Of a stretch of DNA of 32,813 nt, positions 6,081-32,813 are shown one piece after another (the first letter of the stretch is position 1; every line of letters begins with the position of its first letter). The stretch lies in contig JAPEUD010000041.1 of the NCBI GenBank assembly GCA_026026165.1, positions 186,001-218,813 of the forward strand. The letters run 5' to 3'. The position numbers were made by a program, and so were the translations under genes. This stretch comes from Sarea resinae (lineage: Eukaryota). The notes below the pieces were generated by a model. The model searched no databases and was not told where the DNA came from. It worked only from the letters and a program-made list of their open reading frames with translations.

Positions 6081-6374
6081 TTTGTCCCTTTGGCCGTCTC
6101 GTCACATTGCTTTTCTTAACGTTGCTTTCGTCTCGTCTCGTCTCGTCTCGTTTCTTTTCTTTTGTTTTCTCTTGCTTGTTCTCTTGCACAAGCCACTAGA
6201 CACATCTATCTATTCACTTTCTCCCTCTTTCGTTTCGTTGAGATGGATAGAACAGACGATGCTGAGATCAGGTGTGATTTATAGCGGAAGAAAGTGCCAG
6301 CTGCAGTAGCAGTAGCATAGCAGCAGTGCCAGCAGCAGTAGCAGCAGTAGCAGCAGTGGCATAACAACAGCAGT

Positions 6375-6409
<35 letters not shown>

Positions 6410-7127
6410 TAGGAGCACGCAAATCTTCCATCCCGTGCTGTATGTATAAATATACTTTCCGTACATCTCCATCAAGACCAACTATAATGGCTTCGACATA
6501 ACCCGACACCCAGACATCCAGATACCCATCTATCTATCTATCTACGGAAGTAAACACACCCATCCAACCCCCTTTCCCTCCCCCTTTCCCTCTTTCCCTG
6601 CCCCCCTTTCTCCCCATCCCCATCCCCAGCTCCCCGTTCCCCGCTCTTACCCAGCCCGGGCCGGGCCCATCGTTTACATTCATATTCGCATTCATATTCA
6701 AATCCCCATTCAAATCCACATCCAAGCTTTCCCCCCTTACCGAGCTTTCGTTTTCGCGGTTGACCGGTTTCGCGTTGACCGGTTTCGGTGAAGCACCAAC
6801 CACCGGTGGATGGTAGATGGTGGATGTTGAAGTTGATGTCTATATTACAAAAGACGGGGGGAAACGTGAGACTCAAATGAATGAATGAATGAATCCACCC
6901 ACCCACCCACCCCAATCTATTCGATTTGATTCGATTCGATTCTAGGAAATACAATCCATTCGTCCTGCCACCCCCTTTTCCCCGTTCCCCTTTTCCCCAT
7001 TGCCTTTTCCCTTTACCTTTGTCCTTTTCTCTTTTCTCCACGCACGAGAACGACACAAGAATGGGCTCAAGCTAGCTAGCTAGCTGGCTGGCTGGCACAG
7101 CCTAGTTCTGGGATAGCCTAGCCCAGC
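6081..7127. repeat. Compound microsatellite/low-complexity spacer between convergent genes
   Basis: Successive tracts: (TCGTC)n ~6128-6150, (CAG/TAG)n ~6298-6407, (TATC)n ~6528-6543, C/T-rich runs 6570-6640 and 6970-7035, (GAAT)n/(CCAC)n/(GATTC)n 6878-6942, (GCTA)n/(GCTG)n 7070-7095. Confidence 0.9.
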
Positions 7128-15479: not shown

Positions 15480-15693
15480 TCTAAGTAGCGCTCTACTACT
15501 ATATGTTATTGTATATTGTAGTATGTATACACTCTTGAGCGGCCTACCCTTAAGGCAGATAATATCTGTTGTTTTGTATGAGAAAAATTGATTGTTAGTA
15601 AGTGTTTTGTTTTTATTTGTTTGTTGTGTTTGTTATCTGTAGCTTGTTCGTTATTCAGGTTGTTTTATTATGTGTAGATATATATAGAGAGAG

Positions 15694-15729
<36 letters not shown>

Positions 15730-16110
15730 ATTATAGTAAACTATACCTATATAACCAAAAAAAGTATAATTAAATAAACAAACAAACACTTACCTAAGTA
15801 TTCCCTACAAAATAGAAAAGTATATTGCTATTGTTATTAGTAGCTCTATCACTTTTCTATTGCTATTCTAAGAGAAGAGAAGAAGAAGAAGAAGAGAAGA
15901 AGAGGTAATATTTCTTATTTAGAGGAATATAGATACAGAGTTCGTTTTGGTTGTTGTTCTTGTTGTTATTGTAAAAGTAGTACATAGTGGTAGAAGGTAG
16001 GAAGTATACATCACAGTTGAACCTGTGCAAATACTAACCCAACTCTCGATATAGAAACGACTGAGAGAAGCATAAAAGCTCTTCTACTATCTCAAAAAAA
16101 GAAAAACGTC
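15480..16110. repeat. AT-rich, TpA-rich island with (AG)n, (AT)n and (AGA)n tracts; possible RIP-degraded repeat relic
   Basis: Visibly lower GC than the flanks, many TA dinucleotides, (AT)n ~15698-15726, (AGA)n ~15872-15904, and no ORF listed between 14818 and 16087. Confidence 0.6.
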
Positions 16111-29098: not shown

Positions 29099-31654
29099 GC
29101 AATTGCCCTAAATATAATATTTGCTGGACCGTGCACGAAACGAGATCAGTCACGCATGACACAATAAATGCAGCTCCTTCATTCTGATCGTATCCAGCAC
29201 ATTGGGATCACTATGGTATACACTTCAAAGTCAAAAGAAAATTCAAGTTCGCTGGCAAGATTCTTGAGATTGAGTCTAGTGTATTGTATCATCCGAATGG
29301 AACCCATTTCAGCCCCTGCAAGCATAGCTATCCGCCATCGTCCTCGTCTCACACCCGCTCTATGTCTATGTCTTTTCCGTTGCCTGATCCGCTCTATGTT
29401 GAACAAACGCTGTCGACTAACTGACTCCATCATAATATCGAATCGCCTATGTACAAAGCTCTGGCCGTCAAGTTGAAGCTCAGTACCTCTCTAGCATTCG
29501 CTGTTGTGGTTTTTTGTTCGCCGCTAGTAGAAGAGAAGCCGTGGCTTACTGGTAGCCGCCTCGATCCATGGAGAAGCTAATGAGAATGCGATATAATAAG
29601 GTTTGGTGGGTAATCAACGGTGAGTGTTCGAAGGCGAATGTTCAATATGGAAGTTGAACCACCAAAAAAGATGATATCGTGGCGGCAGTGGGATCTGATG
29701 TTGGGAGCTGAACGATGGCGTGTCTATTGGTATCCTCCTCGACCCATGACTGCAAATGTTGAAATTGGTAGGGTGTTCAAAAAGTAAAGGTTGCGAGCCT
29801 TGGAGAAGATGCAAAACTGGAGGATGACTTGAACGGCAACGAACTGCGGTTTGGAGGATCGCGGAAGATGACTATTGCTTGGCTTTCGTTCGATTATGCT
29901 GCAGGGAGAGTTCTTGTTGATGCTCGAGGATGATGATAGAGGATATGTTTGTTTGCTGACTTGATTTGCTGATGTTCTTGATTGGAATTGATGTACTTTG
30001 AATCGAAGATACTGGGACGTCTTATATGAAAGACCGCAATGCAATAGATCCACGATGCAGGAAGAAGCCTCAGACAATAACACGAGAACGTCCACTCTAC
30101 ATCCATGCAAACATAACATTGCCAGCTATAGATCTGCACGTCCAGGGCTCGCCGACCTGAGGGAAGCCTGAAGATCGACCAGCCGTCCCTGCAGCCAGGT
30201 TGCCGGGAACATCGTAAACATCACAACATGTCTGTAACTGAACACTGCAAAGCCACAAACGGCCTTTCGGAAGTAGATCAAGACTGAGACCTACCTACTT
30301 TAGATCCCGGCGCAACTAACAGCCACCTCCCGTCAAGGTCTGCGCCATAGCCTCGGTGCCTCACAGCTCTAGCGCAGCCGCCTTGGATAACTCAGGCACC
30401 AACAGGGTATCCAAATCTTGGTCGACGAGAACGATTACAGAACCCAAACGGCCGAGAAAGGAGGAATCGAGGCTAGTCGAGTACGCCTACACACCAACAT
30501 AAGCCTTGACTCCTTCTGATCTCAGCTGTGACATCTTTCCGAAGGTAGAGAATCTCCGGCTTCGAGAAGGCCACGGGAAGCCAAGCCAACGTTGGCCTGG
30601 GGCTGGAGATACGGGGCATGACAGCATAGCAAGCGGTAATACATGGTGAAGGTTGTGTCCCAAGCGTGCACTGCATCGGATATCCGATGCAGCTCGGTTC
30701 ATAGATCGCCCACCTTAGTGAGGCCCAATCGGCCGGGCGAACTGATGCAGGAACGAGAGTCATACCAGGTATCCAGCAGCCACCAAAGCTAAACGTCAGA
30801 GTAATCACCGGCTATGTTCATTAGCATACTCCAGCTGATTCTTCACTAGACGTGAGGACGAGTATTGTTAGGTAGGCAGAAGTGAGATCGGAATGACTGT
30901 GATTGACTGGGACTCCATGACTGTGACTGACTAGGTCTGACTGCCTGAGGCTGAGCTGCTCCCACTTGTGGTCATGCTTGCGGTCCCCTTCCAGTTGCCG
31001 AGCGTTGCTGGTCCGCATGATTAGCGAGCGCGCCAGCCGCCCACGCGCATCTCCTTGATTCCTTATTCAGTCAGACTCTGTGCCATTTTTGGCAATTCCA
31101 AGTTCCAACGTTCGTAATGCTAGCCAACGGGAGGTCCGATAACCACCTGGTTTCAATGTTTGGGGGCTTTATGGCCGTATCAAGCACCTACCAACTGCTC
31201 ACCACCATTCACAGCAACATCGCTCCGAACAGTTATTCTTGTTTTCCATCGTAGATCCCGCTCAGGAATCAAGTCGCATTGAGTAGAGTCGTCTGTGGAG
31301 ATTCTAAAGTTAGATCGGCTCGTTCGTACCTGATTCTGAATTTCGAGATAAAGTTTGCGATTCTTTTAGAAATCCAAGAACGGCTACTTCGTATAGTGGG
31401 AGGGCCGAGGCGGTTTGGAAATGGCAATCCATAAAACAAAACATACCAAAAGGTTGGAAAGTAGCTTCCAGATCCCTAGGTTCCTACCCACTAACCCACC
31501 TGAAGTCTATAGTATGCTTCTCACTTTACGCATGGCATCGTCATCCTATTTCGAAAGGACAGGATGGGATAGCACAGCGCCGTGACTAATGATCAATGAG
31601 GTCCTAAGTGCGGGCCAGACTCAAAGTACGAAATACTTCCAGTACTTCTCTCTG

Positions 31655-31690
31655 AAAATTGACGGTCCCTCAGGTAGGACCGTCAATTTT
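31655..31690. repeat. Perfect 14-bp inverted repeat (hairpin) with an 8-nt spacer
   Basis: AAAATTGACGGTCC (31655-31668), spacer CTCAGGTA, GGACCGTCAATTTT (31677-31690). Confidence 0.95.
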
Positions 31691-31955
31691 TCGCTTATGT
31701 AAACAAGTACGTACTACTAGATTATGTAATCCACTATTCACGTAAATCTTCGAAGTTCCCGAAAGATTTATTCACCTAAGGTAGGTAGGTAGGTATTCCT
31801 TGACTACTAGGTATATATATAACACCTCTCTCTCTCTCTTCTCTTTTTTCTCTAACTAAAAACACCACCACTACCACCACGACCACCACCCTGCTGTGCT
31901 CTACCTCCCCCCCCCTAAAATTTTTTTTTCGAAAGCTACGAAATGGAATTTGAAT

Positions 31956-32813
31956 ATGAGTACTCCCCTAGCCAATGGCTCTGTGGCTAGCACCTCCTAA
32001 CGTTGCAAACTATGACTGCTGAGTAAGTTTATTTTCTTATCGAATGCTTAACATCAATTTTCAATATTTTCGAAGTTTTACTTTTCTTTTTTTCGGAATT
32101 TTCGAAGCTTTTCTTCCTTGCATTTTACAATTCTTCTGCCTTTTTTTTCATAATTTTTGCAACTTTTCAATCTTTTTTCGAAATTTTCGAAATTCATTTT
32201 TTTGTTAATTTTCGGAATTTTCGAATCCTGACTTTGAAATAGCTAACGCAAAGCGGCCTACGAGGCTCGTTAGGGTAAGGATGCCTGCCTAGACTCAGAG
32301 GATGCAGACAGTCTCTCTGCAGAAGAACTTCTCAGGTAAGCTTTTAACTTCCTTTATTTAATATTTCTTTATTTGATAGAATTTTCGGAAATTACGAATA
32401 TTGTGCTAATTAATTTTTTAGATGCAACTTCTGGGTCAAGGATCGCAAGAGCTTCCCCCTTTGTTACTTGTGCTAGGCCTCGAACGCCCCTCGCCCTACA
32501 GGAGCGGAGGAGCCTCTCAGCCTCGACGACAAGGACTTGCTGAAGTGTGGCCACCTGTACGAGGTAAGTCTAAAAAATTTCAAATTTTTCATTAATTTTC
32601 GAAAATATTGAATTTTTCTAAACTTTCGAGATTTTCGAAATTAATGTCTAACTCTAATGTAGCCATCCGCCTTCGAGATGTGGATGGTCACGCAAAAGAT
32701 AAGCGGGCAGGAAAACAACGCCGAAGTAAGTATAATTCTCTATTCAATTCTTTTTTTTCTATTTCTTTTCTATTTTTTTCTTTTTTTTTAATTTTCGAAA
32801 TTTACTAAATTTA
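31956..32813 (+). pseudogene. Multi-exon gene of unknown family with in-frame stops; 3' part outside window
   Basis: Exons 31956-32022, 32254-32335, 32422-32563, 32663-32725, bounded by GTAAGT/GTAAGC donors and CTAAC/CTAAT branch points plus AG. Translation: MSTPLANGSVASTS*RCKL*LLTAYEAR*GKDACLDSEDADSLSAEELLRCNFWVKDRKSFPLCYLC*ASNAPRPTGAEEPLSLDDKDLLKCGHLYEPSAFEMWMVTQKISGQENNAE. Exon 1 start and frame are the least certain. Confidence 0.7.

Follow-up and report, generated by a model that had tools for sequence, protein, structure and literature searches.

Evidence for a dispersed, RIP-mutated element with two paralogous intron-rich genes in Sarea resinae

Gene A1 at the end of the window

The window analysed here, a stretch of 32,813 nucleotides, reaches to the end of contig C80 in a Sarea resinae assembly of 25.5 Mb in 143 contigs. 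It contains host genes for Cse1, a CCDC90-like protein, TACO1, enoyl-CoA hydratase, and CRT10, which together with the intron signals suggest a filamentous ascomycete; at 15501-16000, an isolated AT-rich block (27% GC) is found within otherwise 50% GC host DNA. At its right-hand end lies a gene, A1, together with the features listed in Table 1.

Table 1. Coordinates of A1, of the left side of the element, and of other loci discussed in the text. Positions without a prefix refer to the window; numbers beginning with C denote contigs of the assembly.
Feature	Position	Strand	Remarks
Element left arm	31644..32813	+	Truncated where C80 ends; homology to C1 and C64 begins here, flanks differ
Left junction	31642..31645		GT|AC
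Left hairpin	31655..31690		Perfect 14-bp stem, 8-nt loop; terminal inverted repeat in the left arm
A1 exon 1	31943..32022	+	80 nt; premature TAG at 31988
A1 intron 1	32023..32242	+	220 nt, 25% GC, five TTCGAA
A1 exon 2	32243..32335	+	93 nt; premature TAA at 32244 and TAG at 32271
A1 intron 2	32336..32421	+	86 nt
A1 exon 3	32422..32563	+	142 nt; CxxC...CxH cluster; premature TAG at 32474
A1 intron 3	32564..32662	+	99 nt; donor-like GTATGT at the same position in C97
A1 exon 4	32663..32725	+	63 nt
A1 intron 4	32726..32813	+	Incomplete, since C80 ends here; exon 5 visible in C64 and C94
DUF3435 captain-like loci	C28:21132-22364; C35:422993-423256; C104:95559-95984		1-2 stops within each match
TCGTCGAACGTCTCA motif clusters	C56:89860-90160; C24:477600-477800; C82:193590-194060; C83:33700-34300

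Each of the four GTAAG[T/C] donors listed in an initial annotation of this sequence (32023, 32336, 32564, and 32726) is present, as are CTAAY branch sites and the AG acceptors that follow them at 32421 and 32662. Such donors occur four times in about 860 nt, where 0.27 would be expected at the rate of the rest of the window. The alternation of GC-richer exons with AT-rich introns is equally evident (46-58% and 21-25% GC, respectively), and splicing as originally described reproduces a frame of 118 codons with four stops and a CxxC motif. Two of its boundaries were revised by comparison with A2, a paralogous gene in the same element: the start moves from ATG 31956 to ATG 31943, and the first acceptor from 32253 to 32242, for which CTGAC at 32228-32232 is the branch site. 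We prefer the revised model because exon 1 of A2 is also exactly 80 nt long and scores 37 against the revised exon-1 frame versus at most 15 against the original one, and because exon 2 of A2 keeps the residues gained by the longer exon 2; the later introns of A2 occupy the same places as those of A1. The revised frame has 126 codons and likewise four stops. TAG 32271 and TAG 32474 stay in frame in both models, whereas the stops originally placed at 31998 and 32013 give way to TAG 31988 and TAA 32244. That each stop could be reverted by a single T-to-C change, as had been pointed out, carries no evidential value, since every stop codon starts with T. As predicted from splice signals and the comparison with its paralog, A1 would be spliced from five exons and comprise about 200 codons, a length deduced from the copies on C64 and C94. 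Between 32040 and 32810, the introns contain T-runs with repeated TTTTCGAA words, which RIP erases in C64.

Homologues of exon 3 were found in A2 and on contigs C94 and C97. When exons 3 and 4 are compared between the window and C94, five of the non-RIP-type changes, i.e. all except window C/G to C94 T/A, fall on the first codon position, three on the second, and 18 on the third. This third-position bias (18 of 26 changes; p = 0.0002) shows that the A1 reading frame is real and that purifying selection acted on it in the past. The relative on C97 shares 46% identity with exon 3, lacks intron 2, and has a donor-like site at the position of intron 3; the surrounding region (about 94900-95700) looks like a decayed longer gene, the C-terminal part of which is homologous to exon 3, and nothing resembling an end of the element was seen in its vicinity. 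In the C94 fragment, exon 5 continues stop-free into unrelated sequence, giving a 169-codon frame (6275-6784 of locus L008 on C94, minus strand) that may be a chimera and has no Pfam match.

Copies of the element and RIP damage

The initial annotation had proposed a multicopy element gene starting about 300 bp inside a boundary, and this agrees with what we find: the boundary lies at 31644, the start codon at 31943, and the copies are dispersed. A search of the same genome with a query stretch from the window yielded matches of 98% on C1, where the copy lies at the start of the contig, of 88% on C64, and of 84% on C94, which has a fragment. The left boundary is common to C80, C1, and C64, the flanks of which are all different; C80 and C1 do not differ over the initial 570 bp of the element, and differences start only at 32214. 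A right boundary is common to C64, C15, and C124, the latter two being located at contig ends. Altogether, three copies of each end are present in the assembly, where the boundaries are sharp and the flanks differ, and one copy, on C64, is complete. The right ends on C15 and C124 are identical over 127 of 127 nt and sit at contig ends, and we therefore conclude that the assembly was interrupted by two or more young copies; their interior was not found in it, searches of the genome with interior DNA and frames having returned the known copies only. The copy on C64 spans 14,289 bp, including a nested, RIP-damaged Gypsy-type LTR retroelement (C64:29578-36973; 305-bp LTRs, 94.8% alike; 5-bp target duplication). 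Without this insertion it measures 6,888 bp and is not the large mobile element originally envisaged.

Very probably, the right-hand end of the window belongs to the left arm of a dispersed DNA element that is about 6.9 kb long, contains A1 and A2, is present in RIP-mutated copies, and carries in A1 a gene once under selection. We regard it as an undescribed, RIP-damaged family of fungal DNA transposons; no description of it was found in the literature. A host pseudogene of the ordinary kind, or a pattern arisen by chance in AT-rich sequence, would agree with the fact that no homologue was found outside the S. resinae genome in searches that are insensitive. The probability of this explanation is nevertheless close to nil, because the copies are dispersed and have defined ends that form pairs, the paralog is conserved and shares the introns, and the third codon positions are biased; the copy and end analysis amounts to its refutation.

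The differences between copies are strongly polarised. Compared with C64, 139 of 147 are window C/G to copy T/A, a few of the others lying in the flank, and compared with C1 the same holds for 24 of 25; the window has one private change versus C1 and is the least damaged copy. In C64, mutation rates reach 16/17 for CCA, 38/44 for TCG, 9/11 for CCG, and 19/29 for TCA, versus 33/79 after a purine. Such polarised C>T/G>A changes with a dinucleotide bias show that the family is RIP-mutated, as had been suspected. CpG is struck as hard as CpA, which had been named as the preferred target, and a 5′ pyrimidine is favoured.

The four stops of A1 are common to C80, C1, and C64, and the last of them is found in C94 too. 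Because they are shared with C1 and C64 despite one private change in the window, they predate the separation of C80 and C1. A1 was therefore broken before these copies split, from which we infer that it is a passenger or accessory gene, dispensable in cis; most likely, it is a passenger. One could also imagine that the stops are read as Trp via A-to-I editing and that A1 is live in a stage-specific manner, and the sharing of the stops among copies would be in line with this. So would the composition of the window exons, which show no overall depletion in CpA/TpG (48 versus 49 expected): since the exons are not CpA-poor, the stops, occupying four of eight Gln-type sites (Fisher p 0.03-0.006, under assumed counts), look enriched, which argues against a simple RIP reading. 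However, three of the four lie in a C-CA context, the hottest for RIP, as the CCA rate in C64 illustrates, and this explains much of the enrichment. In addition, one of the stops is TAA, and at the alignable positions an alignment by eye places polar residues of the C97 relative, not Trp. Editing is accordingly highly improbable in our estimation, and we retain the reading of A1 as a broken passenger gene.

Coding content and ends

Besides A1 and A2, two five-exon genes that each encode a CxxC...CxH cluster, the element contains a candidate gene B, a low-stop plus-strand frame of about 290 codons downstream of the A genes. In the right arm, minus-strand intron-like segments recognised by eye suggest that another gene is read from the right end towards the interior; RIP-aware frame scoring proved too noisy and ambiguous to settle the gene models of this arm.

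The A1 peptide matches no recognised family, in accordance with the initial annotation. Pfam six-frame scans of the C64 arms, in which the plus-strand frames of A1 were represented by exon 3 and which extended to 280 nt from the end of the element, revealed no domain, the sole match (E 0.66) being disregarded; in the same RIP block, the nested Gypsy element was recognised by RVT_1 at 2e-20 plus four more domains. With a RIP-aware aligner, exon 3 of A1 recovered A2 (score 118.7 versus a shuffle mean of 32), and five captain pieces and the PIF1, all from the same genome, stayed at shuffle level on the element (best captain 49.7, shuffle maximum 48.8). Word-index homologue searches with exon 3 and the C97 relative, both short or RIP-damaged queries, were blank, as were HMMER searches of cluster representatives with a 269-residue plus-strand frame of the right arm (possibly the wrong strand) and PHROGs and PDB sequence searches, which are insensitive. 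Single-sequence folds had mean pLDDT values of 34 and 37, making them unusable, and a fold search returned nothing at E <= 0.001. Because the queries were short, RIP-damaged, and exon-split, these blank searches count as weak evidence. A resemblance of gene B to Ulp1-like proteins, noticed by eye, was unsupported.

The left hairpin starts 11 nt inside the boundary and has a fold z of −5.9, none of 200 shuffles folding as well. The inverted repeats are 13 bp long and asymmetrically placed: the left one lies 11-12 nt from the element end, whereas 23 nt separate its partner from the right end, where no significant hairpin was detected (198 of 200 shuffles fold equally well). TACTTC is repeated near both ends. 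A GTAC tetramer is formed at four of the six junctions, both ends of C64 included, and is broken at the other two. The flanks of C64, the one complete copy, have no repeat longer than 6 bp, and their 4-6 bp repeats overlap the conserved element ends; on this comparison there is no clear target-site duplication, merely short junction repeats. Rfam gave no match over six loci, and there is therefore no sign of 5S rDNA at the ends examined. The terminal pattern occurred at three loci in metagenomes, none of them homologous, and at no viral locus.

Two other repeats were seen. A metagenome contig (L055 70-350) contains four copies of a 12-bp repeat with core TTGACGGTCC, two of which make a hairpin; it showed no further homology. 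Within the S. resinae assembly, a motif of about 15-18 nt (core TCGTCGAACGTCTCA) forms intergenic clusters of 3-4 copies on four contigs, and on C56 one copy adjoins a hairpin that has the element's 13-bp left-end arms but an 11-nt loop. These clusters may be remnants of the ends of a related element, or else binding sites for a host protein.

Possible modes of movement

The ends fit Helitron2 best and Starship nearly as well. Helitron2 hallmarks are asymmetric inverted repeats of 8-17 bp, of which the 3′ one is set back 20-30 bp from its end and the 5′ one 0-2 bp, where it pairs with downstream DNA as a hairpin (PMC3627910; for context on HLE2 ends, see also PMC11417382 and the ToxB-HLE preprint). 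The element shares the asymmetric repeats, with the right one at a comparable distance from the end, the folding of the left repeat into a hairpin, and possibly also the lack of a target-site duplication. FoHeli elements measure 5-11 kb, FoHeli1/2 insert between T and A, and FoHeli3-5 are described without a 3′ hairpin (PMC5148889); the size of our element, its T/A-like insertion site, and the position of copies at contig breaks are similar. FoHeli3 also carries an extra ORF without a known domain (PMC5148889), and a 13-nt G-rich word of its 3′ ends recurs about 60 nt inside the right end of the element, a low-complexity and hence weak likeness. The element differs from Helitron2 in that its left repeat lies 11-12 rather than 0-2 nt from the end, in the lack of a significant 3′ hairpin, in insertion that is not between T and T, and in its two paralogous intron-rich genes. 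Its repeat sequence and terminal motif are missing from the FoHeli supplements (PMC5148889), the motif also from the one, possibly truncated, supplementary file of PMC11162782 that was searched.

No RepHel was found in the C64 arms, either by six-frame Pfam scans or by RIP-aware alignment. Across the genome, Helitron_like_N gave no match, but neither did the control; PIF1 gave one. A1, for which a Helitron/Helentron gene had been considered, is not a RepHel but a short Cys-containing gene, duplicated in the element. Non-autonomous Helitron2 members lack RepHel by definition. We lean towards a Helitron2-like (HLE2) mode of movement, by analogy and tentatively, short of calling it probable. In this mode, the element would be copied and pasted via an intermediate that is single-stranded or circular. 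An enzyme of the RepHel type would recognise the left repeat in its hairpin as well as the partner repeat near the right end, and insertion would occur without target duplication at T/A-like sites resembling the element's own end-to-end junction. Because the complete copy on C64 shows no such enzyme, it would be supplied by a trans source or by the unassembled interior of young copies.

The same ends could be those of a captain-less or miniature element moved by a Starship- or Crypton-like tyrosine recombinase, which would excise it as a circle and integrate it by crossover in the 4-bp GTAC microhomology, the offset repeats serving as putative binding arms. The GTAC junctions are reminiscent of the TT//AC crossover of Hephaestus (PMC10104507), and the repeats, approximately 10 and 21 nt off the direct repeat, of those at 14 and 28 bp in Tangerine (10.1101/2025.11.25.690456); DUF3435-like loci are present in the genome on C28, C35, and C104. 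Starships, among them Hephaestus, Tangerine, and Enterprise (PMC8092012), combine junction microhomology with offset inverted repeats, as the element may do, and are likewise fungal and targeted by RIP. With 6.9 kb, however, the element is far below the at least 15 kb of Starships, the smallest of which has 15,020 bp (PMC11162782), and a left hairpin is not mentioned in the descriptions of these Starships that were compared. Neither DUF3435 nor any other recombinase was matched in C64, the terminal repeat does not occur beside the captain loci in the stretches examined, and two of the six junctions break GTAC. The first gene is not the captain that had been suggested for A1: it lacks a DUF3435 match, has about 200 codons, and aligns with captains at shuffle level only. 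CryptonF elements resemble ours as fungal DNA transposons with 4-6 bp terminal direct repeats (PMC3212892), but they encode a YR + GCR1_C protein and have no inverted repeats (PMC3212892, PMC13465315), whereas the element has inverted repeats and yielded neither a YR nor a GCR1_C domain. A recombinase is thus a credible but doubtful candidate.

Cut-and-paste DDE transposons (KDZ, CACTA/Plavaka, hAT, Mariner) have terminal inverted repeats, a target-site duplication, and a DDE or CxC domain. The element does not show these features: its repeats are subterminal, a duplication longer than 6 bp is absent, and Pfam scans of its frames on C64 were blank.

A further alternative is that the element is autonomous and belongs to an undescribed class, a mobiliser without a Pfam model being encoded by one of its own unrecognised frames, either gene B or the minus-strand gene that probably lies in the right arm. 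Candidate frames span much of the 6.9 kb, young copies exist, as the identical ends on C15 and C124 attest, and the searches detected neither a known mobiliser in the element nor a RepHel in the assembly. These blanks carry little weight, all searches having used RIP-damaged, exon-split frames; the right-arm gene was modelled by eye with ambiguous frame scoring, and the assembly is devoid of young-copy interiors. We hold an own mobiliser to be unlikely. Equally unlikely, the element would represent a class of compact, multi-gene, intron-rich elements with mixed Helitron2/Starship ends, an enzyme without a family model, and duplicated Cys-cluster accessory genes. While a Helitron2-like mode remains our tentative preference, we assign the element to no family, since tests for the enzyme that would define one were negative.

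Catalogues of rolling-circle and recombinase-driven elements in fungi are poor, and detection tools rely on transposase. An element that has paired ends, recent copies, and once-selected genes, with no recognisable mobiliser, is invisible to such tools. Its copy series records a variant of RIP in which CpG is hit equally to CpA and a 5′ pyrimidine is preferred. Should an intact copy turn out to contain an ordinary RepHel, the element would be just a new family entry. As it stands, it either extends HLE2 or Starship biology to small gene-carrying non-autonomous forms or indicates a new mobilising enzyme.
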